Below, piece after piece: positions 6,791 through 34,289 of a stretch of DNA of 64,000 bases. Source of the stretch: a bacterium. GTDB lineage: Bacteria > Patescibacteriota > Minisyncoccia > Phycocordibacterales > UBA9973. How positions within the stretch are numbered: the first letter of the stretch is position 1; each line of letters opens with the position of its first letter. The stretch is from NCBI GenBank assembly GCA_021824345.1, contig JAKAKW010000004.1, forward strand, positions 11,019-75,018, given 5' to 3'. A model generated the notes under the pieces. The model searched no databases, had not been told where the DNA came from, and was given only the letters and a program-made list of their open reading frames with translations. Made by a program: the position numbers and the translations under genes.

Positions 6791-7903
6791 CTAGATTCCT
6801 TCTTCTTTTAGTTTTTCCACCAGTTCTTTTTCTTTCCGAGAAAGCTTGTTCGGCATGTTTATATTAAGCTTAATAAGCAGGTCTCCCCGCTTCTTGCCCC
6901 CCATGGGGACTCCCTTGCCCTTTATCCGAAGAATTTCATTTATAGATACGCCCTCGGGAACTTTTACGCTGATCTTTCCGTCCAGGGCGTCAATCTCCCG
7001 TTCAGTGCCAAGCAGAGCGTCGGAAAGCTTCAGATCTAAATTCATTACAAGATTGTTTCCTTCACGCCTAAAAATCGGATGCGGAGCAACATTTATTTTT
7101 ACATACAGGTCTCCGGGTGTTCCTTTTGACACCGCTTCCCCCATGCCGGAAAGGCGCATCATTTCTCCGTCGCGGATTCCGGCCGGTATATTCAAGGATA
7201 TTTCCGTTTCATTGCGAACCACTCCGCTGCCTTTGCAGTCGGAGCATTTTTCCGCCGGGACTTTGCCGCTGCCGCCGCAATCTTCGCATACTTTTGTAGT
7301 GGAAAAAGCGCCCAGGAACGATCTTCTGGTTTCGTGAATTTTCCCCTGGCCGTTGCAATGCTTGCAAGTTTCCATCTTGGTCCCAGGCTTCCCGCCGGTT
7401 CCTTGGCAGGTTTTACAGACGGATGTCTTGGTCATCAAAAATTTCCTGGTAGTGCCGAAAACGGAATCGCTGAAAGTAATTTCCATCTCGGTGGAAATAT
7501 CCCTGCCTCTTTTGCTCCCGCCCCTCTGACGTCCCATTCCCCCGCCGAAAAATTCTCCGAAAATGTCATTCAAATTGCCAAAGTCGAATTCCACTCCTCC
7601 GTTGCCGAATCCGGCGTTCTGAAAACCGGAAAAATCAAAACCGCCGAAGCCTCCCGGCCCGTATTGGCCTCCGGCCTGCCCCTGGCGCATGTTTTCAAAA
7701 CCGGGCCCGAACTGATCGTAATTCTGCCGTTTCTGGTCATCGGAAAGCACCTGGTAGGCTTCGTTCACTTCTTTAAACTTGCTCTCATCTCCTCCCTTTT
7801 TGTCGGGATGGTATTTGTGCGCCAATTTGTAAAACGCTTTTTTGATATCGTCCTTGGAAGCGCTTTTTTCAACGCCTAAAATTTTGTAGTAATCTTTTCC
7901 CAT
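6791..7903 (-). CDS. dnaJ: Chaperone DnaJ (Hsp40)
   Basis: J-domain 'DYYKILGV...HPD', G/F-rich region and four CxxCxGxG repeats ([32 protein letters not shown]). Confidence 0.92.
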
Positions 7904-7941
7904 AGTGGAACTATTATACTTACGACCCGCTTGCGGTCAAG

Positions 7942-9393
7942 TTAGATCATAGGCTCGGCTTCCTGGACTGGTTTGACGGCCTCTCCGGGCTTTTTGCCTT
8001 CAATTATGGCCTTTTCCTCGGCGCTGCGTATAATGGTGGCCTCTTCCTCGGCAATAAGCTTGGCAGCATCTTCTTTGGATATGGTGTATTTCCGCCTGGA
8101 AGCTTCCACTATCTCATTCCTATACGACGGATGGGTGGGAGGCAGGACTTTCAGGGATTCCGCGGAGAAAGGGTCGTATGACTCGCCGTCTATGGTCATT
8201 TTTATGAAAAATTCGGTAATGGCCAGGTTGATCATGTCTTTGATGTCGAAGACGGGCGCAAACTCAGGCTTCATTTTTACCGCGTCCTCGCCGCCGATGC
8301 GGAAGGAAATAATGCTCCCGCAATTACCGAGTACGGCGTGATGCACCCGCTCAATGATCTGCCCCACGAATTGGTGGGCGATGGTAAGGCACAGGCCGTA
8401 TTTGCGCGCTTCCGACAGAATGTTTTCAAAAGTCTGGGTCACCACGTTCTGGAACTCGTCCACGTACAGATAGAAATCGGTGCGCTTGTCTTCCGGTATG
8501 CTCGCGCGTTCCATTCCAGCTTGCTTGATTTTGGTCAGGAAAATGGACCCAAGGAATGAAGAGTTTTCTTCGCCCAGCCGGCCTTTGGAAAGATTGATCA
8601 GAATTATTTTCTTTTCTTCCATCAGCTTATGAATATCAATTTTGTTCTGCTTCTGTCCGAAAATATTGCGCAGAAGCGGATCGGAAAGAAATTGTCCGAG
8701 CTTGTTCACCAGCGGGATGATGGCGTCGGTATCGAATTTTTCCGACCAGTCGGCGAATTCAATGGCAAAGAATCTTTTTACCATATCGTCGGTGATATAT
8801 TCCACCACTTTCTGGCGGTAGTTTCGGTCCGTGAGCATGGAAATCATTCCGCGCATGGTGGCATGCGGATAGTCCAGAAGCGCGAGGCAGGTAAAGCGGA
8901 AGACGTGCTCCAAGCGCGGGGTCCAACTGGCTCCGAACTGCTTTTGAAAGACTTCTATCAGTCCCTGGGTCAATTGGAACTTGAACATCGGATCCACGTT
9001 TTGCAGAGGATTAAAGGAAGCAGGGTGTTCAAGATCGGTCGGATCAATAATGCATACGTCTTCCATGCGCTCTTTGGGGATATAGTCCAGCATGGCTTCT
9101 ATGACGTCTCCGTGCGGGTCAATAAGGCACAGGCCGTGGCCATAAGTCACGTCCTGGCGCAAAAGGAGCTCCATGAGCTTGGTCTTCCCAACTCCGGATT
9201 TGCCGATGATATAAAGATGCCGCCTGCGGTCTACTCGCTTGATGCCGAAAATAAATTTCTTCTCTTCAAGCGCGGCCACGTAATTGGTACGCCCTATAAA
9301 GGAAACTTCAGCCGGATCAATCCTGCCAAATACCGGGAGCTCCGGCGGCGGGGGGGCGTATTTGATTATCTGTACTCGATTGCCTCTGGGCAT
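7942..9393 (-). CDS. FtsK/HerA-superfamily P-loop ATPase (DUF87/HerA-like or T4SS coupling-protein-like), copy 1
   Basis: Walker A 'IIGKSGVGKTKL' followed by 'LIDPHGD'; Walker B 'FYLYVDEFQN'; 'LTIAHQ' sensor-like motif. Paralogous over its whole length to 20010-22241. Confidence 0.6.
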   Translation of the reverse strand: MPRGNRVQIIKYAPPPPELPVFGRIDPAEVSFIGRTNYVAALEEKKFIFGIKRVDRRRHLYIIGKSGVGKTKLMELLLRQDVTYGHGLCLIDPHGDVIEAMLDYIPKERMEDVCIIDPTDLEHPASFNPLQNVDPMFKFQLTQGLIEVFQKQFGASWTPRLEHVFRFTCLALLDYPHATMRGMISMLTDRNYRQKVVEYITDDMVKRFFAIEFADWSEKFDTDAIIPLVNKLGQFLSDPLLRNIFGQKQNKIDIHKLMEEKKIILINLSKGRLGEENSSFLGSIFLTKIKQAGMERASIPEDKRTDFYLYVDEFQNVVTQTFENILSEARKYGLCLTIAHQFVGQIIERVHHAVLGNCGSIISFRIGGEDAVKMKPEFAPVFDIKDMINLAITEFFIKMTIDGESYDPFSAESLKVLPPTHPSYRNEIVEASRRKYTISKEDAAKLIAEEEATIIRSAEEKAIIEGKKPGEAVKPVQEAEPMI

Positions 9394-9401
9394 ATAATCT
9401 T

Positions 9402-9410
9402 ATTTTACCA
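9402..9410 (-). promoter_or_regulatory. Extended -10 element TGGTAAAAT, 8 nt upstream of the ATPase copy-1 ATG (candidate leaderless promoter)
   Basis: The minus strand reads ...TGGTAAAATaagattatATG. The same TGGTAAAGT box sits at the same spacing before two family-gene starts (14737-14745 and 33613-33621). Confidence 0.4.
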
Positions 9411-9430
9411 TTATTCCCATTATTTTTATA

Positions 9431-9453
9431 GGGCGGAGGGTTACCCTCAGCCC
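9431..9453. repeat. Palindromic hairpin repeat family 2 (GGGCGGAGGGTTACCCTCAGCCC) between array A and ATPase copy 1
   Basis: Inverted repeat GGGCGGAGGG/CCCTC(A)GCCC. Related copies lie at 14765, 33641, 44638 and 54594/54625. Confidence 0.7.
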
Positions 9454-9492
9454 TTACCTTTCTACCTCAAAGTCTGCTTAGTTTTGCCGAAA

Positions 9493-11214
9493 TTAATACA
9501 CTTCCTTGTTGTAGCACTCTTCGCAGTATACGGTTTCGGGGCGGTCGGGGGCGAATGCGGTATCAAATTCGTTCAAACATTTGCCAGCGTGGCTGTGGCC
9601 GGCTTTCTGGCACATGCAAGAACGGTGCCAGAGCCTGCGCGGATTGCGGAGCAAAAACCGCTCCTGCCGCCTGCAAGAAAAGCATTTGTCCGGTATCGGA
9701 ATGTTCAGAATCCTGTATAAGGAAAGTTCAAGCGGGGTAATCTTAAAGGCTGTGGTGCATAGAGGATAATTTTTTGCTTCTTCCGGCGAATTCTGTGAAG
9801 AACACCCTATTACTTCATTGATAATGCCATCATTTGCTTCTGTGATAGTTTTCGGCATATTCTCACCGGCAAGAGTGATTTTATAATCTCTCTCAGGCCT
9901 CTCATACCATGAATATCCGGCCTTCACGGCCTCTTCTTTTGTCAGCGGGAAATAGTCCTGAGCCATAGATTCATTATAGGCGAAAGGCGAAACCTCAGCC
10001 GGGAAATATTCTCCCCACTCCCCTGTTTTTCGCATATGCTCTATTATTTTCTCTTTCAGTTCCGCATATTCTTCTTTTGAGTACTGCTTGTTCAATATGC
10101 AGTACTTCCCCTTCTCTAATCCGAAACAGCCGAAGCAGTCGCTGGTGCTGAAACACATATCGCAATAGCAGGAATCCACGATAGTGTTGAAGCAGCTGCG
10201 GATAAACATAGATCTGTGAGGAGAATCTACTCCCTGTATCTCATAGCATCTCTCACCTACTATAATTTCCGTACAATCCATGCAATCTTGAGTATCAAGC
10301 CACGCATCTTGCATATAGGCAGTGTCTTTGTTTTCTTTGCAATTAAATACTTCTTTCGCTCGCTGGCAATTCTCAATATAATCCCCGGTGGAATCTTCCA
10401 CTTGCGATCCGTGGTAATATTTCACTGGAATTTTTAATCGCAGTTTGTTCCTTTTTTCCTTTGCTTCGCGCACAGAATTCCTATCAAATGAAAAATCGCT
10501 TAATTTTTTTTCATACTCTTCCTTATTAAGCTTTTCATTAAACCAGCAATATTGCTTCTTTCTCAAACCCACGCAGCCGAAACAGTCCAAACACCCCTTG
10601 CAATCGTCACAGAACCAGAGTGATACGGAATCTGCGCAATCTCGGCACCAAGCGCACTTGGAGCAATGGTCAAGATTAATGCATTCGTAACAGAATTCGC
10701 TCTTGAAAACCATATAGCAATCACCGCAGAAATGGCTGTTTTGATTCCAGCTTCCATACATGCATTTCTCACACATTCCGCTGGTCACCAGCATGTAACA
10801 CTCCTTGTTGTCCTGAGATTGATTAGTGTATTCGCTATTTACGCTTCTGGAATTTACCATCGCCAGATGGGGCGCTTCTCTGCGCAACTCTTCATATTGT
10901 TCAAAAAATGGCCGATTAAAATCAAAATTCCGCCAGTACTCTTTGGCCTCAAAAGCGTCCGATTTCCAATATTCCTGCTCGTATACCGGAAAGGGCGCAT
11001 CCTCCCGATAAATGGAAATTATGGATTTTCCGGTAGCATCGCATTTCCGCTTGTAAAAATTGTACTCGTTTCGGTCCAAAAGCCGGCGAAGATATCGGCA
11101 ATCCGGACACAGGGTCGGCGGAGGCACGCCGATCTTTCCATAAAACCCGAAATCGTCCGGCTTTATCGCGAAATCTTTTTGACAATTTTTGCACTGTCTT
11201 TTTTCTTCCTTCAT
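9493..11214 (-). CDS. Cysteine-rich multi-zinc-ribbon family protein, array A copy 1 (unknown function)
   Basis: 573 aa. N-terminal module 'CKNCQKDFAIKPDDFGFYGKIGVPPPTLCPDCR'; core 'CDDCKGCLDCFGCVGLRKKQYCWFNEKLNKEEY' and '...CFGCFGLEKGKYCILNKQYSKEEY'; C-terminal 'PIPDKCFSCR...WHRSCMCQKAGHSHAGKC...YCEECYNKEVY'. Confidence 0.85.
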   Translation of the reverse strand: MKEEKRQCKNCQKDFAIKPDDFGFYGKIGVPPPTLCPDCRYLRRLLDRNEYNFYKRKCDATGKSIISIYREDAPFPVYEQEYWKSDAFEAKEYWRNFDFNRPFFEQYEELRREAPHLAMVNSRSVNSEYTNQSQDNKECYMLVTSGMCEKCMYGSWNQNSHFCGDCYMVFKSEFCYECINLDHCSKCAWCRDCADSVSLWFCDDCKGCLDCFGCVGLRKKQYCWFNEKLNKEEYEKKLSDFSFDRNSVREAKEKRNKLRLKIPVKYYHGSQVEDSTGDYIENCQRAKEVFNCKENKDTAYMQDAWLDTQDCMDCTEIIVGERCYEIQGVDSPHRSMFIRSCFNTIVDSCYCDMCFSTSDCFGCFGLEKGKYCILNKQYSKEEYAELKEKIIEHMRKTGEWGEYFPAEVSPFAYNESMAQDYFPLTKEEAVKAGYSWYERPERDYKITLAGENMPKTITEANDGIINEVIGCSSQNSPEEAKNYPLCTTAFKITPLELSLYRILNIPIPDKCFSCRRQERFLLRNPRRLWHRSCMCQKAGHSHAGKCLNEFDTAFAPDRPETVYCEECYNKEVY

Positions 11215-11219
11215 TTATT

Positions 11220-12980
11220 TCAGTATACCTCTTTTCTATAGCACGGCTCGCAGTAAATTTTCAGGTTCTTGGACGGGTCATATGTGGTCAATATTTCCTT
11301 TCCGCATTTGGAACATATGCGCTTCCATATTTTATATGGACTCCGCTTATGAAAACGCTTCATCAGCCGCGCTCGGGGACTTTTCGCAGGTAAAGGAATG
11401 GAATTTCGGCGGTAAAAATCAAGTTCGCTTTTTATTATCCTGAAAGGCCGGCCGGACTCCTGGCAGATTATAGCCATATTAAGAATATCATCCGTTGCGT
11501 CTTTTATATCATCCGTAAGATCCTTGCCAGAAATAACCTTCATGCCTTTTACATCCATGCTCACTTCGTAATCCCGAAGACGAGCGCCCAGTTTCCCTGC
11601 TTTTTCTTTGGAAACCGGCATCATAGCATACCCGTAAGTGTCGTGGTAATAGAAGAAAGAATCCTCCAGCCGCAAGAACTCCCCGTAATTTCCATCTGAA
11701 AGCATCTTTACTTTTATCTTATCCACCAGCTTCCAATATTCTTCGGGAGAGTATTGCTTATTCAGCACGCAGAAATTCTTCTTCTTTAAGCCGGAACACC
11801 CGAAGCAGTATTTACAATCCGAACATTCAAAGCAATATTCCACCTGCCGGCAATTACTGACGAAATATGAGGCAATGGCAAGATTGGAAAAAAGCCCTTC
11901 GGCAACATTGTAGCAAAGCTCGCCGGGGCCGAATATGGTCACGTCCATGCAATCGTGCGTGCCAATTATGTCGGAACTGTGCCGCACATTCTCATTCCGA
12001 TAGAAAGTTATCAAATATTTCATGCCGGAGGCATTGTATACATCCACGCAGTTTTTACTGTCTGATATGTGACTGCCGAGCGATCCGGGAGAGTTGCGTA
12101 TAATAAGATCCCGATGGATAGAGTCTTTTTCTATCATTTCCGAAAATTTACGCTTGTATTCTTCTGCCACCGATCTCCTGCCAAGATCTATTTCAGAAAT
12201 TTTTTGCATATACTCTTCTTTGGAAAACTGTTTATTGAGAAAACAATATTGTTTGCTCCGCAAGTTTGCGCACATAAAGCAGTCGTGACAATCATGGCAG
12301 TCAAACAAAAATTTTGAATTTATACAGCTTTTGCAATTTTGAATATATTGAGACTCATAGATGCGGTCGGAATCTAATATATCGTAGCAATGCTCTAAAT
12401 GGTCCACTCGCAGGACGTCTACGCAATCCTTAGCATATGCCGCCCATAGTCCATAGGACACGTCTTCGGAAACGCCTATCACGGAAGAAACATAGCAGTT
12501 TTTGACGTCCATGCTCTCCACGCTGTAATCACTGTTTATGATGTTCTTGTTGTATCTGGATATAGCCATATGGGGTACGTCGTGGAGCAATTTGTTCAGC
12601 TGTTCATAGAAAGATTCATTTGCATCATATACGCGACCGAATCCTGTTGCGTCCCAAGCATTCACATCCCACCAGTATTTGTTGTCATAAATTTTATATT
12701 GGCTTTTCGCGTCCAACTGGGAAATCAGGCTTTCCCCAGAATGAGCGGAGCATTCTTTTTTATAGAACTGGAAAATATTGGCAAGCATGGCCATGCGCCT
12801 GCGCGCCCGGCATTCCGGACATTCATTGAGAGGAGGAACTCTCAATTTTTTTAAATACGATATGTCCTCAGCGCTGATATCAAAAGAATTCCCGCAAGTT
12901 TCACAAGTGCGTTTTTGCGGAGAAAGATTTTCATATATCTTTTCCAGGGCTTCATCAAATTTCGGAGTTTTTGTCTGCAT
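11220..12980 (-). CDS. Cysteine-rich multi-zinc-ribbon family protein, array A copy 2
   Basis: The listed ORF extends to 13055, but the family-conserved start is MQTKTPKF at 12980, 1 nt after the stop of copy 3. Motifs 'CETCGNSFDISAEDISYLKKLRVPPLNECPECR', 'CHDCHDCFMCANLRSKQYCFLNKQFSKEEY' and C-terminal 'CSKCGKE...YCEPCYRKEVY'. TGA stop. Confidence 0.8.
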   Translation of the reverse strand: MQTKTPKFDEALEKIYENLSPQKRTCETCGNSFDISAEDISYLKKLRVPPLNECPECRARRRMAMLANIFQFYKKECSAHSGESLISQLDAKSQYKIYDNKYWWDVNAWDATGFGRVYDANESFYEQLNKLLHDVPHMAISRYNKNIINSDYSVESMDVKNCYVSSVIGVSEDVSYGLWAAYAKDCVDVLRVDHLEHCYDILDSDRIYESQYIQNCKSCINSKFLFDCHDCHDCFMCANLRSKQYCFLNKQFSKEEYMQKISEIDLGRRSVAEEYKRKFSEMIEKDSIHRDLIIRNSPGSLGSHISDSKNCVDVYNASGMKYLITFYRNENVRHSSDIIGTHDCMDVTIFGPGELCYNVAEGLFSNLAIASYFVSNCRQVEYCFECSDCKYCFGCSGLKKKNFCVLNKQYSPEEYWKLVDKIKVKMLSDGNYGEFLRLEDSFFYYHDTYGYAMMPVSKEKAGKLGARLRDYEVSMDVKGMKVISGKDLTDDIKDATDDILNMAIICQESGRPFRIIKSELDFYRRNSIPLPAKSPRARLMKRFHKRSPYKIWKRICSKCGKEILTTYDPSKNLKIYCEPCYRKEVY

Positions 12981-12981
12981 A

Positions 12982-14730
12982 TTAATACACCTCCTTGTTG
13001 TAACAATCCTCGCAGTATACGGTTTCGGGGCGGTCGGGGGCGAATGCGGTATCAAATTCGTTCAAACATTTGCCAGCGTGGCTGTGGACGGCTTTCTGGC
13101 ACATGCAAGAACGGTGCCAGAGCTTCATGGGATTGCGTTTGGCAAGGCGCGCTTCGTGCCGGCAGAAGAAGCATAGATGCGGGAGCGGAACACCGAGTTT
13201 TTTATACAGCTTCAGTTCCCCGTCGGTTATCTTGAATGCCCCGCGGCAACGCCCGCCGGAATTATTCCGATTCGCGCATCCTATTACTTCGGAAAGAATC
13301 GAATCCCGCACATCGCCCAATCTGTCCGGCAGATCTTTCGCCTCAATGGTGAGGGAATACTCGTTCTGCTTTTTGTCCCGCCACCTGTACCCCCTCGAGA
13401 GAGCCTCCTCCTTGGTCAAAGGAAAATAATCCTGGGCCTGGGTTTCGTTATAACAGAATGGAGAAAGTTCCGCCGGGAAGAATTCGCCGTACTTGTATGT
13501 CAAACCATTCCTGTCCACATAAGGCATATTCATCATATGCTCTTTGATTTTTGGAACCAACGCTTCATACTCCTCCTTTGAATATTCCTTGTTTAAAATG
13601 CAATGCTTCTTATTCCTTATTCCAATACAGCCGAATAAATCGGAACAGCCGTGGCAATTGAACGAATATTCCACGTTATTTGAGCTGTACACCACGCTGG
13701 TGAATAAGTTGCGGTAATTTCCAATGCCGGTATCAAATGCTTCATACGCCAGCTCTGCGTCCCCCAGACCCGGTCCAATATCGTAGCCGTCTTTTACCAC
13801 ATGGGCCACCCAATGCGCGAACTTGCAGTCTTCTATGTTGCCATTTCCGTCAAAAATAATATGGCAATTTTTTACCCCGTCCAAATTATCTCCGGTGGAA
13901 TTTATACTCCTAATCTGGTTTGCAAATCTATTGACGGCTCCGAGTACAAGCTTGTCAAATTTTTCTTTTAATTTTGAAATTTCGGCATAGCTTGTGAGAT
14001 CGATTTCAGACAAGCGCTTAGTGTATTCTTCCTTGCTTAATGGTTCATTCCACATGCAATATGATTTGTTGCGCTGGTTTGTACAGCCCAAACAATTGGT
14101 ACAGCCATGGCAATCGTAAAGAAAATATGAATCCACGCAGGCCTTGCATTTCATGGAATACATAAGGCGATAGCAGTCTTCGCAAAACATATCCTCGTAA
14201 CAGAGTTCTGATTTGTGAGTCACATAAGTGTCTGAGCAGTCTTTGGTCTCGGAGATGCGATTGGAATAGAAAGTACGCTCAATTTTCCATGACCCGGAAG
14301 ACATGTAGCTTTCTCTTGAATCCTCCGCCACATTGCAGTAATCGCTGTTTACGGCATGGATGTTAGAAAGAGCCTGTTGGGGAAAATCCCTATATAACTC
14401 GCTCCATTGCTGAAAAAATGGTTTTGAAAAATCATAGTCCCGCCCGTAAGAAAGTTGGTCCCAATTGTCGCTCCACCAATAACTTGAATCATATGTTTTC
14501 AGCTTTTCATCCGGCGGATACATGCTGATTATGTCCTCGTCGTGCCCCGGCGCGTCACATTTGCGCCTGAAAAGAGACATTTCGTTGCGCCAGCTTATGC
14601 GTCGAACAGTACGGCAATCGGGGCAAAAAGTCGGCGGGGGCACGCCGATTTTCTTGTAGAAATTAAAATCCTCCGGCTCAATAGCGAAGCTCTGCTTGCA
14701 ATTCTGGCATTGCCGGGTTTCGGATTGCAT
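12982..14730 (-). CDS. Cysteine-rich multi-zinc-ribbon family protein, array A copy 3
   Basis: 582 aa with 'MQSETRQCQNCKQSFAIEPEDFNFYKKIGVPPPTFCPDCR'. Its C-terminus is nucleotide-identical over about 115 bp to copy 1. Confidence 0.85.
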   Translation of the reverse strand: MQSETRQCQNCKQSFAIEPEDFNFYKKIGVPPPTFCPDCRTVRRISWRNEMSLFRRKCDAPGHDEDIISMYPPDEKLKTYDSSYWWSDNWDQLSYGRDYDFSKPFFQQWSELYRDFPQQALSNIHAVNSDYCNVAEDSRESYMSSGSWKIERTFYSNRISETKDCSDTYVTHKSELCYEDMFCEDCYRLMYSMKCKACVDSYFLYDCHGCTNCLGCTNQRNKSYCMWNEPLSKEEYTKRLSEIDLTSYAEISKLKEKFDKLVLGAVNRFANQIRSINSTGDNLDGVKNCHIIFDGNGNIEDCKFAHWVAHVVKDGYDIGPGLGDAELAYEAFDTGIGNYRNLFTSVVYSSNNVEYSFNCHGCSDLFGCIGIRNKKHCILNKEYSKEEYEALVPKIKEHMMNMPYVDRNGLTYKYGEFFPAELSPFCYNETQAQDYFPLTKEEALSRGYRWRDKKQNEYSLTIEAKDLPDRLGDVRDSILSEVIGCANRNNSGGRCRGAFKITDGELKLYKKLGVPLPHLCFFCRHEARLAKRNPMKLWHRSCMCQKAVHSHAGKCLNEFDTAFAPDRPETVYCEDCYNKEVY

Positions 14731-14736
14731 ATATAA

Positions 14737-14745
14737 ACTTTACCA
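14737..14745 (-). promoter_or_regulatory. Extended -10 box TGGTAAAGT, 6 nt upstream of the copy-3 ATG (internal, leaderless-type promoter)
   Basis: The minus strand reads GGGCGGAGGGATACCCTCCGCCC-TAGAATTTTTACGCAAACG-TGGTAAAGT-TTATAT-ATG. The same cassette repeats upstream of array B at 33613-33663. Confidence 0.45.
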
Positions 14746-14764
14746 CGTTTGCGTAAAAATTCTA

Positions 14765-14787
14765 GGGCGGAGGGTATCCCTCCGCCC
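14765..14787. repeat. Palindromic hairpin repeat family 2 (GGGCGGAGGGTATCCCTCCGCCC) in the only sizeable intergenic gap of array A; on the minus strand it is followed by a T5 run (terminator-like)
   Basis: Perfect 10-bp stem. On the transcribed (minus) strand it is followed by TAGAATTTTTACG. Confidence 0.7.
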
Positions 14788-14834
14788 TCCCTCGGCCCTT
14801 CTCCGCCTTGGCTTCCAAATTAAAACCATTGCCG

Positions 14835-16577: not shown

Positions 16578-16589
16578 AAGATTATCTTG

Positions 16590-18296: not shown

Positions 18297-18298
18297 GA

Positions 18299-24263: not shown

Positions 24264-24290
24264 GATATTAATTTAATTATTTGTAATGCT

Positions 24291-24465: not shown

Positions 24466-24527
24466 ACTATTCCGACATTATATACTAATGCTATAATTTT
24501 GACAAGTTTTTCGTGGTCGCAAAAAGC

Positions 24528-24555
24528 TTGTCAAAAGGTATAATAATGCTATAAT
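24528..24555 (+). promoter_or_regulatory. Sigma-70 promoter for the PaaX-like gene: -35 TTGTCA, extended -10 TGcTATAAT ending 6 nt before the ATG (leaderless)
   Basis: A second TGcTATAAT copy lies at 24489-24497, followed directly by TTGACA (24499-24504). Confidence 0.55.
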
Positions 24556-24561
24556 TCTTAT

Positions 24562-26793: not shown

Positions 26794-26797
26794 AACT

Positions 26798-28510
26798 CTA
26801 ATATACTTCTTTATTGTAATGTTCTGTGCAAACTACTTTTTCAGGGCCACCTTCGGAGACGGGAGGAAAAGTGGTATCCACTTCCTTGTCCCCAAAAAAG
26901 CACATGCGCTTATGCAACTTCATCGGATTGCGGATCCTGAGCCTGGCATTATGCCTCTCGTCTGGGTGGACAGATGGTAAAGGAAGATTCATCCTTTTAT
27001 AAAAAGAAAACTCTTGCTCTGTTATTCTGTATGGCCTGCCGGTAATTTCGCAAGCTATAGTTTTTTCCAGAATTGAATTGTCCGCTTCTAAAATGGTGTC
27101 AGGTAAATCCGATCCATTAATATCCGTTGTATATATTCCGGATTCATATTCCCGCCACAAGTATCCTTTTTCCTCCGCAGTCTCCTTTTTTAATGGAAAA
27201 TAGTCCTGTGCAACCGTTTCATTATAGGCATACGGCGATATTTCCGGCGGAAAATACTCTCCAAATCTATAAATTTTTCCCTTTTTATCTTCAAATGGCA
27301 CGTCCATCATATGCTGAATGACCTTCGGCAAAAGATTTTCATATTCTTCTTTTGTATATTGCTTGTTCAGTATGCAATATTGTTTTCCGTTTAGTTCCGC
27401 ACAGCCGAAGCAGTCCTTGCAATTATTCATCATGTAGCTGTAATGCACATTATTGGAATACCAAATTATGGAACCGAGCAGGCAATAATTGTTATGCACC
27501 CCTATACTTATCCCTTCATAAGTCAATTCCGATCCCCCTCCGGAACCCGGCCCGACGTCGTATGAATCTCGCAATCCTTTCGTGCCTCAATTTGCATATT
27601 TTACATTCTCAAAATCCCCTTCGGCGTCAAACACTTTGTAACAATTTTTTGAATTAAATACGTGGTCCCCCACTACATTCACGTCGTTTAATAATTTTAG
27701 GTCGCGGTGTATAGCATTTTCCCATACTTCCTTGAATTCTGCTTTTGCTGACGCCAGTCCTTTTATTGAATCCAGCCTTAACTTCTTCTTTTTTTCTTCG
27801 TATTCTTCTTTTGAATACTGTATATTTTTTATGCAGTAGTTTTTGTTCCTCAAATTGGAACATAAAATGCAATTGGAGCAATTTCTGCAATCATATAGAA
27901 AGTATGAATCAAGACAATTTTCGCTTTCCAGGGAAAAGAAAAGCCTACTTGAGTCCCGGCAATAAACATTTTCATATCCAAACTCCGTGTTGTAGCAAAC
28001 GTGCGAATCAACGGTGTATTTGCACCCTGATACCCTATTACAATACATGGAGTCTTCGCATGTCCAAGCCGCCGTCACCAAATAGCAGTTTTTCATTTCC
28101 ACTGTAATATTGCAAAACCTTGCATTGGATGATTTGGAATCGAAAAGAGTAATGTGTGGAACTCGTTCCATAAGCTCCTTGAACTGCAGAAAAAATGGTT
28201 TGGAAAAATCATATTCTCTTCCATACTCAAGCGGATTCCATTTATCGCTCCACCACATGTCCTTGTCGTAGACAGTCATCTTTGCGTCGGGGTGATATAT
28301 AGAAATCAAAGTTTCTTCCTCCTTTCCCGGAGCGCCGTTCGGGCAGCGAAAAAGAGAGTGCTCATTGCGCCACATTAATCTTCTAAGAAGCCGGCACTCC
28401 GGGCAAAACGTCGGCGCGGGAACCTTGATTTTCTCATAAAAAGAGAAATCATCCGGCTCGACGATGAAGCTCTTCTGGCAATTCTGGCATTTTCGGGTTT
28501 CGGGTTGCAT
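26798..28510 (-). pseudogene. Cysteine-rich family member, array B copy 2, interrupted by an in-frame TGA (the complement of 27587-27589)
   Basis: The two listed ORFs (27587-28546 and 26798-27574) are collinear with the family. The minus strand reads ...ENVKYAN-TGA-GTKGLRDSYDVGPG in one frame with no frameshift. The stop aligns with W in copy A3 ('KFAHWVAHVV'). TGA is a genuine stop in this genome (used by copy A2 at 11220). The C-terminal module has lost its conserved Cys pair ('PLPSVHPDERH'). Confidence 0.6.
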
Positions 28511-28512
28511 AA

Positions 28513-30207
28513 TCAATACACCTCTTTTTGATAGCAACTTTCGCAATATATTATCTCCGGCCTCTCCGGCGCGTAGCTTGTTTCAAATTCGTTCGAACAC
28601 TTTCCTTCGTGGCCGTGGTTTCCCTTGTCACACATGCACTGGCGAAACCACGACTGTCTTGGAAGACGAAGAGAAAATCTTCTTCGATATCTGCAATCAG
28701 GACATTTCCTGGGCAAAGGAATGTTTTCTCTCTTGTAGAAGGCAAGTTCGTCAGGGATAATGTTGTAGTTTTTAGAACATGAGACGCATTTCAAAGCGGC
28801 AGAAAATATATCTTCATTAACATCTTTAATATTGTCCGCCAAGTCCTCCGGCTGTATCGTTTCTTTCCCGAATATTCCGGGTATTTCATCCTCCCAAAGC
28901 CATCCCCTATCCAGCACTTCTTCTTTGGATAAGGGCATATAGTAATTTCCCTGGGTTTCGTTGTAACACACGGGGGCGATCGGGGGCGGAAAGAATTCTC
29001 CGTACTCCCCCGTTTTTTTCATATGTTCAATAATTTGATTTCGCAGTTTAATATACTCCTCCTTGCTGTATTTTCTGTTGAATATCATGTATTCTCCTTT
29101 TTTAATTGATATGCATCCGAATAGATTCTGGCTGTTCTGGCACGAATCGCAATATTGGATATGAGAATTGTCGTAACAAAGATGGGAAAAGAAAGCATCA
29201 TATACTCTTGTGCATCCGTGATCTTCATATGCCAGTTCAGTATTAAAGCCCACGTGATAGCAATCCATCACGCTTTTCATATCAACTGCTGAAAATATAT
29301 TCTTGGCGTCATACATTTTATTTACATCAAAGCAGTGTATCGTATTTTTGCTGTTAAATATGAAATTACCGGAAGAATTTACGCTTCTTTCGCTTACCAT
29401 ATATTTATGTATGGAGTTTTCCTGATATAATTTTGAAAATTCTTCCATAAACTTTTCCCTGGCCGCATGCGATCCGAGATTGCATTCCTCTATTTTCTTT
29501 GCGTACTCCTCCTTGCTGTATTGTTTATTTTTAAAACAGAAACTCTTATTCCTTAGGTTGGAACATAGGAAGCAATCATTGCAATTTCGACAATCGTATG
29601 AATAAAAACAGTTTACGCAATTCTCTAAAAGTACGGAAAATTGGCATCCGAAACCATTATTGGAATCTATGCATTCATAAAGCCTTTCTCCGTGTTTAAT
29701 TATATAAGAACAATCCATAGAACCTCTTGATTCCATCACATAAGTGGAATATGACACGTCTTCAGTGTCAAAACAGCAAAAAGACATATATGTATTCTTG
29801 TTGTCTCCGGAGTGATTGGTGTATTCCGATTTTACGCTGTTCTTGCTGAGCACTGCCATGCGGGGAACTTCCAGCATAAGTTCCTTGAATTGTTCAAAAA
29901 ACGGCCTGTTAAAATCAAAATCTCGCCCGTATTTTGCCGGGTCCCATCCGTCTCCCCACCAGCAAGACAGGCAATATACCTTGTATGGCTTATTCGGTGA
30001 ATATATTGTAACCGTGCTCTTTCCGCACAAGTCGCAGTTTCTTCTGTATAAAGTTCTTTCATTCCTCCATGCGTATCGTCTCTGCTGTCGGCATTCCACG
30101 CACAACGTCGGCGGAGGAACCTTGATTTTCTCATAAAAAGAGAAATCATCCGGCTCGACGATGAAGCTCTTCTGGCAATTCTGGCATTTTCGGGTTTCGG
30201 GTTGCAT
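28513..30207 (-). CDS. Cysteine-rich multi-zinc-ribbon family protein, array B copy 3
   Basis: 564 aa. Its 5' end (about 90 bp) is identical to copy B2 and its 3' end (about 88 bp) to copy B1. Second ribbon 'CDLCGKSTVTIYSPNKPYKVYCLSCWWGDGWD'. Confidence 0.85.
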   Translation of the reverse strand: MQPETRKCQNCQKSFIVEPDDFSFYEKIKVPPPTLCVECRQQRRYAWRNERTLYRRNCDLCGKSTVTIYSPNKPYKVYCLSCWWGDGWDPAKYGRDFDFNRPFFEQFKELMLEVPRMAVLSKNSVKSEYTNHSGDNKNTYMSFCCFDTEDVSYSTYVMESRGSMDCSYIIKHGERLYECIDSNNGFGCQFSVLLENCVNCFYSYDCRNCNDCFLCSNLRNKSFCFKNKQYSKEEYAKKIEECNLGSHAAREKFMEEFSKLYQENSIHKYMVSERSVNSSGNFIFNSKNTIHCFDVNKMYDAKNIFSAVDMKSVMDCYHVGFNTELAYEDHGCTRVYDAFFSHLCYDNSHIQYCDSCQNSQNLFGCISIKKGEYMIFNRKYSKEEYIKLRNQIIEHMKKTGEYGEFFPPPIAPVCYNETQGNYYMPLSKEEVLDRGWLWEDEIPGIFGKETIQPEDLADNIKDVNEDIFSAALKCVSCSKNYNIIPDELAFYKRENIPLPRKCPDCRYRRRFSLRLPRQSWFRQCMCDKGNHGHEGKCSNEFETSYAPERPEIIYCESCYQKEVY

Positions 30208-30211
30208 AACT

Positions 30212-31948
30212 CTAATATACCTCTTTATTATAGCAGTCTTCGCAATATACTATATCCGGCAAATTGGGACTGTAACTGGTTTCAAATTCGTTTGGGCATT
30301 TTCCTTTGTGATTATGGCCTTTCTCTTTGCACATGCAGGAACGGTGGTAGAACTTGCTGGAATGCCTGTGGGCAATTCTTCTCTCGTGCCGGCAATCCAC
30401 ACACAGGCGCGGCAGTGGCACATTCGTCTGCTTAAGAAAAGACAGTTCCGGCGCTATTATCCTGTAGGCCCTGCCGCAACCAGCGCAGGAAATGACCTCC
30501 CTCAATATGCTCCCCGTGACATCGCTGACAGAATCAGGAAGATCTGACGCGGAAATTGTTATATCATATTTGTTCGGATCAGAATCGTCAAAACGCATGC
30601 CGAGCTGTTCAGCCTCTTCCTTGCCTTTTGGAAAATGTTCCGAAGCGATTGTGTGGTTATAGGCAAAAGGAGAAAACTCCGGCGGAAAAAATTCTCCGTA
30701 TTTATAGACTCTTCCTTTCTTGTCAGTATACGGCATATCGTTCATATGCCTCTTTATTTTCTCCTTCAGGGCAAAATATTCCTCTTTTGAGTACTGTTTG
30801 TTCAAAATGCAATATTTCTGCTTCATTATTCCGATACAGCCGAAAAGATCGGACGCCATGTGTCCGCAAAACATGCAATATTCAAATCCGCTGCCCCCGT
30901 CCCAGCACTCCATGCAGAACCTCATATCGGAGCTTCGCCACCCGCAGACCGAGCATTCATACAAAAGTTCCGTCTTGTTTCCTATGATCGTCGCGTCCAT
31001 GCAATCCTTACTGGAAGGAACTTGGGAATATTGCACATATTTTAAATTTTCACACTCGCGAATGAGGTAGCTCTCTTTTACGTTTTTTGAATTGGATATA
31101 TACTCCCCCGTTACATTCTGGTTGTGAGTGCCTTCCATGAATTTATTCGGAAATTTAAGCCAGAACTCTTCGGCTTTTTTCCGCGCCAAAGAAAAATTGC
31201 TCCATTTTTTAAGTTCCATTTCTTCCAGTTTTTCCTCATATTCTTCCTTTGTATATTGCTCGTTCCAAATGCAATAGCTTTTAGAACGCAAGTTGGCACA
31301 GCCAAAGCAGTGTTGGCAATCCCGACAATTTTTCAAAAACCACGACGAAAGGCAATTTTCACACTGCGCGGAAAAATGGGTTTCATAGCAGTTGGTAAGC
31401 CAAAAGGAATCATAACACCGCTCGGATTTTTGAATGTGAGAAACATCAAAGCAGTTCCGGCAATAATCCACTCCATTGCCATACGAACAATCCTCCGTGA
31501 AGTTTGAATTAAACAACAAGTAACAATTCCGCAAGTCTTCGGCATTGGCTGAGTAATCGCTGTTTACCATTTTTGAAGCGGTTACGGCCCGGCTGTATTT
31601 TGGAACCTTTTTTGACAATTCAAATATTTGCTCAAAAAAAGTCCTGGCGGGATCAAAATCCATTCCATATGATAATGGATCCCATTTCTCTTGATTCCAC
31701 CAGTCGCTGTCATTGTAAATCGTATATCCTGATTCCGGAGAATAAAGGGAAAAAATAGTTTTGCCGGTAAGGCCTTCTTTTTGCCTAAAAAGCTTTCTTT
31801 CATTCCTGAAAACCATCCGCCTTTCCTTCCGGCATTCTGGGCACCATGTGGGAGCCGGCACTTTGAATCTTTCATATTGGGAGAAGTCTTCCGGCTCTAT
31901 CGTAAAGTCATTCTGGCAATTCTGACATTTTCGGGTTTCGGATTGCAT
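30212..31948 (-). CDS. Cysteine-rich multi-zinc-ribbon family protein, array B copy 4
   Basis: The listed ORF extends to 32050; the conserved start MQSETRKCQNC lies at 31948. Motifs 'CRDCQHCFGCANLRSKSYCIWNEQYTKEEY', 'CILNKQYSKEEY' and C-terminal 'CVDCRHERRIAHRHSSKFYHRSCMCKEKGHNHKGKCPNEFETSYSPNLPDIVYCEDCYNKEVY'. Confidence 0.8.
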   Translation of the reverse strand: MQSETRKCQNCQNDFTIEPEDFSQYERFKVPAPTWCPECRKERRMVFRNERKLFRQKEGLTGKTIFSLYSPESGYTIYNDSDWWNQEKWDPLSYGMDFDPARTFFEQIFELSKKVPKYSRAVTASKMVNSDYSANAEDLRNCYLLFNSNFTEDCSYGNGVDYCRNCFDVSHIQKSERCYDSFWLTNCYETHFSAQCENCLSSWFLKNCRDCQHCFGCANLRSKSYCIWNEQYTKEEYEEKLEEMELKKWSNFSLARKKAEEFWLKFPNKFMEGTHNQNVTGEYISNSKNVKESYLIRECENLKYVQYSQVPSSKDCMDATIIGNKTELLYECSVCGWRSSDMRFCMECWDGGSGFEYCMFCGHMASDLFGCIGIMKQKYCILNKQYSKEEYFALKEKIKRHMNDMPYTDKKGRVYKYGEFFPPEFSPFAYNHTIASEHFPKGKEEAEQLGMRFDDSDPNKYDITISASDLPDSVSDVTGSILREVISCAGCGRAYRIIAPELSFLKQTNVPLPRLCVDCRHERRIAHRHSSKFYHRSCMCKEKGHNHKGKCPNEFETSYSPNLPDIVYCEDCYNKEVY

Positions 31949-31950
31949 AA

Positions 31951-33606
31951 CTAATTTATATTCTGCTTGTAACACTCCTCGCAGGCAATGTTTTTGTATC
32001 CCCATTCGGGCGGGTAATATGCCATGATATCTTTCCGGCAGTAATGGCATTTATACGGAAAAGGGTGCAGAACGGTCAGGTATTTGAGCGCATTCCTGGT
32101 CCGCAGATCAAAATGCAGGCGCGGCAGAGGGATATTATTCTCTCTATGAAAAGAAAGTTCATTTTGGGCGATATTGAAACGCCAGCCGGTCTCCGGGCAG
32201 ACGAGCGGTTGGGTAATGATTGAATCTGGCGCGTCCTTGATATTGTCCGGCAATTCGCCGGCGGGCATGCCTTCCGCTTTTTCTGTGTTCGGATCTTCCC
32301 AATACCCGCCCAAAGCCAAGACATCTTCTTTTTTTGCTTCCGGAAAATACAATATGCTTGTGGAAAGGTTGAAAGGACCGGCGCTCATTGAATAGGGCAA
32401 GAATTGCCCGTATTCTCCCCGCTTTTTCATGTCAGACACTATTTCCATCCGGAGTTTTTCATATTCTTCTTTCTCATACTGTTTGTTCAGAATGCAATAT
32501 TTTTTCTTCTTCAGTCCTACGCAACCAAAACAATATTCGCATTCTATGCACAAGTCCAGATACTCGGAATACCTGGAGGATGACCAGTTGCTGTATTTCT
32601 GCGCATAAGCGTTAACGCAGCTGGCGCAATTGCCCAAGAGCTCGGAATACCAGCAACCATTCGCGTCAATGTCGGACTTGTGCCGAAGCCCGCGATTGCA
32701 GTTCCAAGAATCCTCAGAGTCGCTTATCGTGTTGCAATTATGGCAATTCTTCGTATCCATCAAGTAGTTTCCGTCGGAATCATATACCCTATAATTGAAA
32801 TTGGGCCGGTGCACCGCTTTGTCCTTGGCAATATTTTCAAATTTTTCCTTCAGCTTCTGTGCGGCGGAATACGAACCGAGATCGTATGATTCGAGTTTGG
32901 CCTCGTACTCTTCCTTGGAATATTGCACATTCTCTATGCAGTGCGTTTTTCCCCGAAGGTTCCAGCACATGAAGCAACTTTGGCAATTACGGCAATCGTA
33001 CAAAAAAGACGAATCAATGCAGTCTCGGCAGTGCCGAGAATAGAAAAGGCGGAAAGAATTGTAGCAGTCGCTCGAATCGTAGCATTTCTCCGAATCAAAC
33101 AGCACATGCACGTCTATGGAATTCCTGACCCGCAGGTTTCGATATGAATAATAAAGTTCTTCGCAATTTTCCATGGAGCGGGCCAGGTAACAGTTCTTTG
33201 AATTCCACACGTCGTCGCACCAGTCGCAATTCGTATTCTTGATCCCGTTCTGGTGCGGATGCGGCACTTTTTCCTGAAGTTCCTTAAGCTGATCAAAAAA
33301 AGGGCGGACGGGATCGTAATCCTGCCCGAATTCCATCGGATCCCATTTATCGCTGTACCATTCGGAAGTCTTGTAGATCGGGTACCGGCTATTTTCCGGC
33401 ATGACCGTGATCAGGCTTTCGCCGGACAAATCCGATTTCCCTTTTCGAAACCGGCCGAAGAGCCAGAACGAGAAATGTTGCTTCAGCCTGCAGTCGGAGC
33501 AAATGACCGGAATCTCAGTGCCGGTTTTTTCGTATAAAGCAAGTTCTCCAGGCTCTATGCTGAACTTTGACTTACAGTGCTCGCACGTGCGAGCTTCACT
33601 TTGCAT
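31951..33606 (-). CDS. Cysteine-rich multi-zinc-ribbon family protein, array B copy 5 (first gene of array B, divergent member)
   Basis: 551 aa: 'MQSEARTCEHCKSKFSIEPGELALYEKTGTEIPVICSDCR', 'CRNCQSCFMCWNLRGKTHCIENVQYSKEEY', 'CFGCVGLKKKKYCILNKQYEKEEY', C-terminal 'YKCHYCRKDIMAYYPPEWGYKNIACEECYKQNIN'. Confidence 0.8.
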   Translation of the reverse strand: MQSEARTCEHCKSKFSIEPGELALYEKTGTEIPVICSDCRLKQHFSFWLFGRFRKGKSDLSGESLITVMPENSRYPIYKTSEWYSDKWDPMEFGQDYDPVRPFFDQLKELQEKVPHPHQNGIKNTNCDWCDDVWNSKNCYLARSMENCEELYYSYRNLRVRNSIDVHVLFDSEKCYDSSDCYNSFRLFYSRHCRDCIDSSFLYDCRNCQSCFMCWNLRGKTHCIENVQYSKEEYEAKLESYDLGSYSAAQKLKEKFENIAKDKAVHRPNFNYRVYDSDGNYLMDTKNCHNCNTISDSEDSWNCNRGLRHKSDIDANGCWYSELLGNCASCVNAYAQKYSNWSSSRYSEYLDLCIECEYCFGCVGLKKKKYCILNKQYEKEEYEKLRMEIVSDMKKRGEYGQFLPYSMSAGPFNLSTSILYFPEAKKEDVLALGGYWEDPNTEKAEGMPAGELPDNIKDAPDSIITQPLVCPETGWRFNIAQNELSFHRENNIPLPRLHFDLRTRNALKYLTVLHPFPYKCHYCRKDIMAYYPPEWGYKNIACEECYKQNIN

Positions 33607-33612
33607 ACAATA

Positions 33613-33621
33613 ACTTTACCA
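33613..33621 (-). promoter_or_regulatory. Extended -10 box TGGTAAAGT, 6 nt upstream of the first array-B gene (leaderless-type promoter)
   Basis: The minus strand reads ...GGGCGGAGGGTACCCCTCCGCCC-TATATTTTTTACGCAAGTG-TGGTAAAGT-TATTGT-ATG, nearly identical to the cassette at 14737-14787. Confidence 0.45.
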
Positions 33622-33640
33622 CACTTGCGTAAAAAATATA

Positions 33641-33663
33641 GGGCGGAGGGGTACCCTCCGCCC
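33641..33663. repeat. Palindromic hairpin repeat family 2 (GGGCGGAGGGGTACCCTCCGCCC) between grpE and array B, followed by a partial extra half-copy
   Basis: 10-bp stem; on the minus strand it is followed by a T6 run, making it a plausible grpE terminator. Confidence 0.7.
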
Positions 33664-33683
33664 TACCTTCCGCCCTACAGGTT

Positions 33684-34289
33684 TTATTCTCCGCCCCCCG
33701 CTTCGTATTCAAACACGTTTACCCGGGCCGGGCGAAGAACTCGCTCGCCCAGTTTATAACCTTTTTGAATTACCTGCGCGATTTTATGGTCAAGATCCTT
33801 CTTGTCTGTCTTCATTGAATCCACGCTATGGTGTAAATTAGGATCAAAAGCGTCGCCGTCTTCTCCGAATTCCTTTACCCCGTATTCCTCAAAAACCGAA
33901 TTCATTTGCGAATGGATGTATTCCACTCCCTTGCGCCAATTTTCGTCCACCTTGTTCCAGGCATCTTTGTTGGCAAAAGCCATCTGAAAGCTGTCCATCA
34001 CTGACAAAAACCTGGTAAGAATCCTTTCCCGCACCGATTCGGAAAAACTGGCTCTGCGCATCTCCTCTTCTTTTTTGTAATTGGCGAAATCAGCCCGCTC
34101 TTTTTGCCAGCCTGTAAGGTATTCTTCTTTTTCCTTTTTGCAAATTTTGAGTTCCTCCCGAAGCTTTTTAACGGTCTTTTTCAGATCCTCTTCCCCGTCG
34201 GCATTATATTCAAATTCCAAGACCTCCGAATCGTCATTTTTCGGAAGCTCCGGCTCTTTATTTTCGTCTTTTTGCTCTTCGTCTTTCAT
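33684..34289 (-). CDS. grpE: Nucleotide exchange factor GrpE
   Basis: Coiled-coil N-terminus and C-terminal 'HHSVDSMKTDKKDLDHKIAQVIQKGYKLGERVLRPARVNVFE' (GrpE beta-sheet domain signature). Confidence 0.85.
   Translation of the reverse strand: MKDEEQKDENKEPELPKNDDSEVLEFEYNADGEEDLKKTVKKLREELKICKKEKEEYLTGWQKERADFANYKKEEEMRRASFSESVRERILTRFLSVMDSFQMAFANKDAWNKVDENWRKGVEYIHSQMNSVFEEYGVKEFGEDGDAFDPNLHHSVDSMKTDKKDLDHKIAQVIQKGYKLGERVLRPARVNVFEYEAGGGE

Follow-up and report, generated by a model that had tools for sequence, protein, structure and literature searches.

The genes grpE, dnaK and dnaJ of the Hsp70 chaperone system are adjacent in many bacteria, an arrangement that is common but not universal; in Escherichia coli, grpE is unlinked from dnaKJ. 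The closest described counterpart of the locus reported here is the hrcA-grpE-dnaK-dnaJ operon with its regulator HrcA and operator CIRCE. We analyzed a stretch of 64,000 nucleotides (the window; contig JAKAKW010000004.1, positions 11,019 to 75,018 of the forward strand, GenBank assembly GCA_021824345.1) from an ultra-small bacterium of the candidate phyla radiation (CPR; Patescibacteriota, UBA9973), in which the three chaperone genes are separated by two ATPase genes, a regulator gene and two arrays of genes encoding cysteine-rich proteins (the family). In our interpretation, to which we assign a probability of roughly 60%, an autonomous cassette of ATPase and family genes became nested in the chaperone locus long ago, its adjacency to the Hsp70 genes is mainly positional, and the ATPases would form a coupling-protein-like motor.

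VirD4-like proteins, to which the ATPases are similar, have been surveyed in the CPR. A preprint reports 5,713 homologs in 2,918 genomes; virB4 is close to only 148 of these homologs, and a possible exaptation is discussed (10.1101/2025.01.22.634366). The ratio of about two homologs per CPR genome in that survey agrees with the pair of paralogs found here. A zinc ribbon present in one of the two ATPases is of the CxxC-x17-CxxC type, and this domain binds zinc in small proteins of Methanosarcina mazei (PMC12704099).

In the window, grpE, dnaK and dnaJ keep their canonical order, all on the minus strand, and are spread over 27,499 bp, measured between the stop of dnaJ and the start of grpE. Fourteen genes intervene, so that the chaperone genes are not contiguous (27.5 kb), and about 19 kb, or 69%, of the grpE-dnaJ interval is occupied by family genes. 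A preliminary description of the window had given this picture, i.e., three co-stranded chaperone genes in canonical order about 27 kb apart, ATPases, arrays and a PaaX-like regulator between them, and ClpB 17 kb off. Pfam matches, open reading frames (ORFs) and coordinates agreed with it on all of these points. The features of the locus are:

6791-7903, minus strand: dnaJ, 370 aa; Pfam DnaJ, DnaJ_CXXCXGXG and DnaJ_C
7942-9393, minus strand: ATPase 1, 483 aa; soluble VirD4/TrwB-like P-loop ATPase
9493-20005, minus strand: array A, six family genes (ORFs and translations) at 9493-11214, 11220-12980, 12982-14730, 14835-16577, 16590-18296 and 18299-20005, each of about 570-586 aa with 30-43 Cys
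20010-22241, minus strand: ATPase 2, 743 aa; paralog of ATPase 1 with an added zinc ribbon and tail
22326-24263, minus strand: dnaK, 645 aa; Pfam HSP70, 817 bits
24562-25080, plus strand: PaaX-like winged-helix regulator, 172 aa; Pfam PaaX_M, 61.6 bits; divergent from dnaK
25081-33606, minus strand: array B, five family genes (ORFs and translations) at 25081-26793, 26798-28510, 28513-30207, 30212-31948 and 31951-33606
33684-34289, minus strand: grpE, 201 aa; Pfam GrpE, 129.7 bits
50969-53668, minus strand: ClpB, 16.7 kb from grpE

The genes of array A are separated by 1-12 nt, save for one gap of 104 nt containing a hairpin (14761-14788). In array B, the family gene at 26798-28510 disclosed an in-frame TGA (27587-27589) at a Trp position conserved in its paralogs. 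The gene is otherwise intact; the codon could be a read-through site or a sequencing error, or the gene could have recently become a pseudogene.

To compare the locus with that of related bacteria, a DnaK scan of one genome per GTDB species was performed. It yielded 80 loci, whose DnaK proteins were 79-90% identical to that of the window, and these loci were annotated by tblastn, a hidden Markov model of the family and phmmer. Locus flanks comprised 10 kb, and loci as large as that of the window cannot show both ends at this size. The recurrent order was rpoA ... grpE, zero to four family genes, the PaaX-like gene on the opposite strand, dnaK, zero to two family genes, ATPase 2, zero to four family genes, ATPase 1 and dnaJ, followed in some cases by arginase and cysS. 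Both ATPase genes lay between dnaK and dnaJ in 39 of the 41 loci that show these two chaperone genes, and in 50 of 51 related loci grpE and dnaK flanked the PaaX-like gene. Within the 10-kb flanks, zero to four family genes were counted from grpE to dnaK and zero to three from dnaK to dnaJ. The number of family genes ranged in relatives from zero to at least nine, with seven to nine or more copies in four loci (L021, L032, L028 and L074); the window contains 11. Among the 31 loci showing both ends, seven were devoid of any family gene. Five of these seven (L005, L016, L023, L064, L076) retained both ATPases, and in all but L023 this family-free, two-ATPase locus measured 6-8 kb. L080 and L082 exhibited a contiguous grpE-PaaX-dnaK-dnaJ unit without ATPases or family genes in the same rpoA-side context. 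They are the most divergent members of the set (DnaK 79%, GrpE 44-45%, RpoA 64-65% identity). Since the most divergent loci are contiguous and lack the cassette, the compact operon is by parsimony ancestral, and the nested cassette is a shared derived trait of the Nomurabacteria-type clade to which the window belongs. The names of homologs assign the window to Candidatus Nomurabacteria within the Paceibacterota.

The comparison of synteny had been proposed in the preliminary description, where an identical dispersal in relatives devoid of the family was named as a sign of an older, unrelated rearrangement. Instead, family-free relatives either keep the ATPases inside the locus or, lacking both, possess contiguous chaperone genes, as seen in L080 and L082. 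The suggestion made there that family and ATPases had been inserted into the chaperone operon was thereby supported in its core and had to be revised in two respects: the event is ancient and clade-wide (39/41), and what came to lie in the operon was one pre-existing cassette of ATPases and family, which is located elsewhere in other Paceibacterota.

Further genes were inserted into the locus in some species, among them an ABC transporter, an RsmE-like gene, CutA1 and small ORFs. About 16 related genomes harbored a gene for a protein of approximately 593 aa, which looked like an ABC exporter by its sequence, between a family array and the PaaX-like gene (adjoining the latter in L008, L010, L011, L013, L017, L018, L020-L022, L025, L028, L029, L035 and L039). 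Other recurring elements were an RsmE-like gene in opposite orientation and, preceding ATPase 1, two small ORFs of about 116 and 97 aa. The chaperone locus tolerates further insertions.

The surroundings of the cassette in other lineages were determined in a second scan, of metagenomes, anchored on the ATPase 1 homolog of another lineage (L084, 71% identical). It gave 80 further loci, 58 of which contained at least 2.5 kb beside the ATPase and were used for counting. Family genes occurred in 49 of the 58 loci, with a maximum of 12 per locus, and each of the 172 family genes was co-oriented with the ATPase. A chaperone gene was present in only six of them, five of which displayed the arrangement of the window. 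Because family genes thus accompany the ATPase in 49 loci and a chaperone gene in only six, the general linkage is that of ATPase and family, together with c5, c7 and CutA1, while the Hsp70 linkage is lineage-specific. The typical order in other Paceibacterota was secD-secF, c11, c5, c7, ATPase 1, in some loci CutA1, and family arrays, where c11 encodes a Sigma70_r4/HARE-HTH protein, c7 a membrane protein of 174 aa and c5 a membrane protein of about 460 aa. An alternative order was c5, ATPase 2, family, CutA1, ATPase 1, family, pgk and recJ. Family arrays without a nearby ATPase were found in L001, L002 and L083.

The gene CutA1 for divalent-ion tolerance adjoined ATPase 1 or family arrays in many lineages, in 35 ATPase-anchored and seven dnaK-anchored loci (e.g., L084 6658-6963, L005 7449-7760, L002 20636-21049; also L087, L089, L090, L097, L106, L122, L135 and L148). 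No copy exists in the window. Its recurrence may hint at metal handling by the zinc-rich family.

ATPase 1 and ATPase 2 are paralogs sharing 43% identity. Walker A and Walker B motifs are intact in both (GKSGVGKT and YLYVDE in ATPase 1), and neither protein contains a transmembrane segment (maximum 19-residue hydropathy 1.0-1.1). They matched Pfam TrwB_AAD_bind (PF10412; 35-39 bits, cut-off 20.5), DUF87 and TraG-D_C. The scores obtained with the NCBIfam models of type IV coupling proteins (T4CPs) were far under the cut-offs (54.6 vs. 250 for CD1115, 52.8 vs. 366 for SXT_TraD, and 37 vs. 648). Best matches of an AlphaFold2 model of ATPase 1 in the PDB were TrwB, DotL and Cag-beta (Foldseek, E 6e-11, TM-score 0.54-0.62), ahead of HerA and VirB4. 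The zinc ribbon CxxC-x17-CxxC of ATPase 2 resides at aa 454-488 and scored 52.4 bits with TIGR04272 (cut-off 36) and 50.1 bits with PF23477 (cut-off 27). It is followed by about 250 C-terminal residues (window 20010-20760) of low complexity, rich in Lys, Glu and Pro and probably disordered; related loci showed a gap of similar length after the ATPase domain. Median identities across the 80 dnaK-anchored loci were 84-86% for the ATPases, 84% for DnaK, 75% for RpoA, 71% for GrpE and 67% for DnaJ. The ATPases are hence as conserved as DnaK. In a search for homologous proteins of the ATPases, the best 120 matches were all at least 82% identical.

A candidate for the membrane partner of the ATPases is encoded in the window 12 kb from grpE:

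46196-47623, minus strand: c5, membrane protein of 475 aa with an N-terminal transmembrane segment; tblastn match to c5 of other Paceibacterota, where c5 is located immediately before the ATPases
47767-48807: c11, adjoining c5

No Pfam or NCBIfam model matched c5. However, the profile phrog_5156 (824 positions) aligned with ATPase 1 at positions 395-818 (E 5e-52) and with c5 at positions 63-189 (E 4e-8). The protein gp156 of Bacillus phage G (825 aa; L166 1361-3838), which adjoins the VirB-like gp155, is 28% identical to ATPase 1 in its C-terminal half, and its N-terminal part was aligned with the c5 profile by hhalign at a probability of 94% (E 1.2e-7). A direct tblastn search of phages with c5 gave no match, the link to gp156 being seen by profile methods only. 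Because the two parts are fused in gp156 and in phrog_5156, c5 is likely a membrane partner of the ATPases. The fusion suggests that both act together and that c5 gives the anchor which classical coupling proteins carry themselves.

The family comprises proteins of 551-586 aa with 27-43 Cys and no transmembrane segment. Gene starts were set by the conserved N-terminal motif MxxExxxCxNC. Paralogs in the window are 29-49% identical to each other, and invariant Cys pairs make zinc-ribbon-like motifs at the N- and C-terminus. The family is large: clustering at 90% identity gave more than 7,395 clusters, each annotated as hypothetical. At 50% identity 5,345 clusters (E<=1e-3) or 2,331 clusters (E<=1e-30), nearly all full-length, were obtained. 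Searches of Pfam, NCBIfam, PADLOC and PHROGs gave no match, nor did a sequence search of the PDB; Foldseek found no PDB match to the fold despite a confident model (pLDDT 86.8, pTM 0.86). The C-terminus has the layout CxxC...YCxxCY, which in one paralog scored below the threshold of the Pfam zinc ribbon (22.8 vs. 27 bits), and the family profile was weakly similar to the zinc ribbon of ATPase 2 (hhalign E 0.09 over 26 columns). Several paralogs are positional orthologs: the gene next to grpE was recovered in 26 related loci with 55-73% identity, a second family gene occupied the same slot in 14 loci, and one between the ATPases recurred in 15 loci. The remaining paralogs are less than 55% identical between species.

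Three proposals on the nature of the family were discarded. A phage or viral origin was dismissed as no relative existed among 2.9 million viral contigs. The preliminary description had considered the proteins as DnaJ-like zinc-finger holdases, which did not hold: none of the members tested matched PF00684, and the hhalign probability against DnaJ was 0.07%. Finally, a foreign composition was not evident, the GC content at third codon positions of family genes (0.45-0.59) overlapping with that of their neighbours (0.51-0.63) without a clear signal.

The transcription of the locus was deduced from sequence throughout. The following signals were identified:

24503-24530, no strand assigned: candidate operator, 28-bp palindrome CAAGCTTTTTGCGACCACGAAAAACTTG in the divergent promoter region of dnaK and the PaaX-like gene
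about 22307-22281, minus strand: intrinsic terminator AAAAAACCGGTCTTGAGCCGGTTTTTT of dnaK
22278-22250, minus strand: promoter-like site TTGATA-17-TATAAT before ATPase 2 (promoter scan)
7940-7913, minus strand: promoter-like site TTGACC-16-TATAAT before dnaJ (promoter scan and sequence read)
33637-33666, minus strand: hairpin with T-run directly 3' of grpE; 13-bp stem with 9 GC pairs, then ATTTTTT
9427-9454, no strand assigned: GC-rich palindromic hairpin without T-run between array A and ATPase 1

In the 298-bp intergenic region of dnaK and the PaaX-like gene, the promoter scan disclosed divergent near-consensus promoters, whose -35 boxes are both overlapped by the palindrome. The latter occurs once in the window (0 expected by chance). 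It could be aligned and was conserved in about 65 related loci, the outgroup with the compact operon included, and was found once per related locus, solely beside dnaK. Because of this conservation and exclusive position, the PaaX-like protein is likely a dedicated dnaK repressor and the palindrome its predicted operator. CIRCE (TTAGCACTC-N9-GAGTGCTAA) gave no match at up to three mismatches within the window, although hrcA may lie elsewhere in the genome. The two elements are probably an undescribed regulator-operator pair replacing HrcA/CIRCE for dnaK in this CPR clade. The match to PaaX_M (61.6 bits) exceeded the cut-off of 24, whereas the full-length equivalog TIGR02277 scored only 25.4 against a cut-off of 264.55, the protein having only 172 aa. 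A regulatory motif shared across the locus was rejected, as the 12-mer ATTATAGCATTA and the palindrome were confined to the dnaK/PaaX intergenic region.

The dnaK terminator, which had already been pointed out at 22281-22307, is present as AAAAAACCGGTCTTGAGCCGGTTTTTT and precedes the promoter-like site of ATPase 2. Terminator-like hairpins followed dnaK in 39 of 72 related loci. Elsewhere in these loci they were virtually missing, with counts of 0/36 for ATPase 2 to family, 1/86 between family genes, 0/22 for family to ATPase 1, 0/34 for ATPase 1 to dnaJ and 2/38 for grpE to family. Thus, dnaK is the sole gene of the cluster with a regular downstream hairpin of this kind and looks transcriptionally insulated. 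Because of the short gaps and missing terminators in relatives, grpE and dnaJ may share transcripts with the cassette in the clade as a whole.

A hairpin of the form (T)AGGGCGGAGGG-N3/4-CCCTCCGCCCT(A) was observed in six intergenic copies in the window (9436-9448, 14770-14782, 33646-33658, 44641-44653, 54599-54611 and 54630-54642), compared to 0.15 expected by chance. Three copies divide the chaperone and cassette region, lying after grpE, inside array A (A4/A3) and between array A and ATPase 1. The element may be REP-like or a shared terminator.

In our view, the comparison shows the following history. The ancestral locus was a compact unit of grpE, the divergent PaaX-like regulator, dnaK and dnaJ. 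A cassette that is autonomous and far more widespread, composed of two paralogous soluble VirD4/TrwB-like ATPases and of co-oriented arrays of the CPR-specific, zinc-ribbon-bearing family (about 570 aa, 30-40 Cys), came to lie inside it in the ancestor of the clade and has been inherited vertically since, while the arrays grew and shrank in place. The locus would no longer be one operon. dnaK presumably forms a stand-alone unit with the PaaX-like operator over the divergent promoters and the intrinsic terminator behind it; grpE may head array B, which follows downstream, and ATPase 2, array A, ATPase 1 and dnaJ appear as a tightly packed co-directional run. The functional partners would then be the ATPases, the family and the membrane protein c5. 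On grounds of gene neighbourhood, fold and one domain fusion, we would guess that the ATPases, docked on c5 and c7, assemble into a hexameric motor resembling that of coupling proteins, for which the diversified zinc proteins serve as cargo or adaptors. The adjacency to Hsp70 would at most lead to a degree of co-expression of grpE and dnaJ with cassette genes.

The main competing view is a coupling of the cassette to proteostasis, in which the zinc proteins are clients of Hsp70/Hsp40 or zinc-dependent holdases, the ATPases work with DnaK in unfolding or handover, and selection holds the heat-shock locus together. The nesting has indeed been kept in 39 of 41 related genomes, each of the three slots of the chaperone locus, and at times the position just behind dnaJ, has collected family genes, and the grpE-family and ATPase 1-dnaJ junctions of relatives are short and almost free of terminator-like hairpins. 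It is also plausible that proteins so rich in Cys (30-40) and with several zinc sites require assistance in folding. Against this view, a chaperone gene lies near the cassette in only six of 58 loci of other Paceibacterota. In addition, the dnaK operator is absent before every other gene of the locus, dnaK is insulated by its terminator, the family profile is unlike the DnaJ zinc finger, and the 17 kb to ClpB are an ordinary chromosomal distance. ATPases of the FtsK/HerA/T4CP type are not known to serve as proteostasis machines. We therefore consider this explanation unlikely, and the functional tie to proteostasis raised in the preliminary description was not borne out by the operator at dnaK only, the terminator behind dnaK and the usual distance between cassette and dnaK outside the clade. 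A transcriptional tie of grpE and dnaJ to the cassette is possible in view of the hairpin counts at the two junctions (0/34 and 2/38). An extended variant holds that ATPases, c5, c7 and zinc family make up an undescribed translocation or remodelling machine specific to Paceibacterota, wired in the Nomurabacteria-type clade to the Hsp70 locus, with the co-transcribed GrpE and DnaJ and with DnaK as its dedicated chaperones. We regard it as a little less likely than the simple coupling; if true, a secretion-type motor and the proteostasis system would have been fused in this one lineage.

An island for defence or conflict, in which HerA/VirD4-like ATPases and a fast-diversifying family of sensors or effectors had settled by chance in the dnaK locus, would agree with the weak matches that the ATPases gave to the mad8 and HerA models of PADLOC, with ATPase homologs in large Bacillus phages, with the copy number of the family varying by species and with less than 55% identity of most paralogs between genomes. 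Yet several paralogs are stable positional orthologs, and the ATPases, at 84-86% identity equal to DnaK, behave unlike defence genes. Their position amid housekeeping genes is fixed and vertically inherited. Neither an integrase nor a transposase was seen among the annotated genes of the window or the recurrent genes of related loci, a nuclease, Sir2 or DUF4297 partner was missing, and the family has neither a PADLOC or PHROG match nor a relative in the viral contigs. The odds of this explanation are slim, below those of both coupling models. An artefact of the assembly, or a rearrangement or duplication that arose recently in this genome only, has nothing in its favour except the repetitive look of the arrays. 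It was ruled out for practical purposes by the same order in dozens of independent assemblies and by the divergence of the paralogs, which at 29-49% protein identity and at most about 87% identity over short DNA stretches are neither collapsed nor recent repeats.

Some observations weigh against the nesting of an autonomous cassette as we propose it. Selection for Hsp70 linkage would also be expected to keep the nesting in about 70 species-level genomes, and gene order alone cannot separate it from vertical inertia. The short gaps and missing terminators in relatives point to co-transcription of grpE and dnaJ with genes of the cassette. In the distant locus L125, dnaK-x-dnaJ lies directly upstream of secDF-c11-c5-c7-ATPase-family, and the regional neighbourhood may be older than the clade. 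The absence of the cassette from the outgroup L080/L082 is known for the chaperone locus only, the ATPase model is of moderate confidence (pLDDT 66), and the role of the family as cargo or adaptor is pure inference.

The split operon is a lineage-specific variant of a familiar locus, and the proposed Hsp70 connection is probably historical. The synteny is well founded and informative for the biology of the CPR. For chaperone biology the result is modest, the split operon being best read as history and not as evidence for new Hsp70 clients. The nesting event could be placed at the base of one clade, and the link that emerged as the general one is that of ATPases and family, not that to the chaperones. 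The cassette, at about 23 kb and some 2-3% of the tiny genome if a typical CPR size is assumed, is an uncharacterised widespread CPR module, of which the literature knows the ATPase part only as orphan T4CP homologs. These orphan VirD4-like ATPases thereby gain consistent genomic partners, i.e., the family, c5, c7 and CutA1. Literature searches on dnaK in Nomurabacteria, VirD4 and DnaK in CPR, PaaX as a dnaK repressor and zinc-ribbon paralogs of Patescibacteria returned nothing relevant.

The remaining genes of the window are housekeeping genes (DnaB, RecR, CysS, arginase, RpoA, ribosomal proteins, alanyl-tRNA synthetase (AlaRS), MnmA, TypA, IF-2 and tRNAs). The alanyl-tRNA synthetase gene (41383-43044, minus strand) encodes 553 aa with the catalytic and tRNA_SAD domains and is far shorter than typical bacterial AlaRS. 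Between 57000 and 64000 the GC content falls to 0.36-0.42. Within it lie clustered tRNA genes for Cys, Leu, Lys and Leu (58876-59298), an ORF (58153-58893) whose product has a LAGLIDADG-like domain, and several further ORFs that matched no Pfam model (59367-62968). This part could represent an island or otherwise variable segment.

Compared with the hrcA-grpE-dnaK-dnaJ operon, the locus has the same three genes in the same order and orientation, encodes a DNA-binding regulator of its own and carries a long palindrome over the promoter. It differs by the dispersal over 27.5 kb, by the separate terminator of dnaK, by the T-run hairpin after grpE and by the promoter-like sites before ATPase 2 and dnaJ. 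Moreover, its regulator is not HrcA but a small divergent PaaX_M winged-helix protein encoded between grpE and dnaK, and the candidate operator is CAAG(Y)WTTTNGYGRYCRCGAAAWRCTTG and not CIRCE. The family is dissimilar to holdases of the DnaJ type (CXXCXGXG), lacking a PF00684 match. With the TIGR04272/PF23477 zinc ribbon, a bona fide copy of which resides in ATPase 2, it shares the layout of the C-terminus, while its remaining more than 500 residues have no known relative.

The HerA anti-phage ATPases (Sir2-HerA, DUF4297-HerA) and the ATPases described here belong to the FtsK/HerA superfamily and are connected by secondary fold matches and weak partial PADLOC matches. Unlike those systems, the locus shows no partner effector (Sir2, DUF4297, NurA) in the window or in related loci and no features of an island, and its genes have been passed on vertically and are conserved to a very high degree. 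The nearest relatives by fold are the type IV coupling proteins (VirD4/TraD/TrwB/DotL). Relaxase, VirB4 or other genes of type IV secretion systems were not among the annotated genes of the window or the recurrent neighbours in 160 related loci. The similarity to coupling proteins includes the fold, Pfam TrwB_AAD_bind and TraG-D_C above the gathering score, the Walker A and B motifs and the membrane partner c5, which a phage homolog beside a VirB4-like gene has as a fusion with the ATPase. In contrast to coupling proteins, the ATPases of this locus lack an N-terminal transmembrane anchor, score below the NCBIfam T4CP cut-offs, occur as two paralogs per genome and are conserved at the level of housekeeping proteins.

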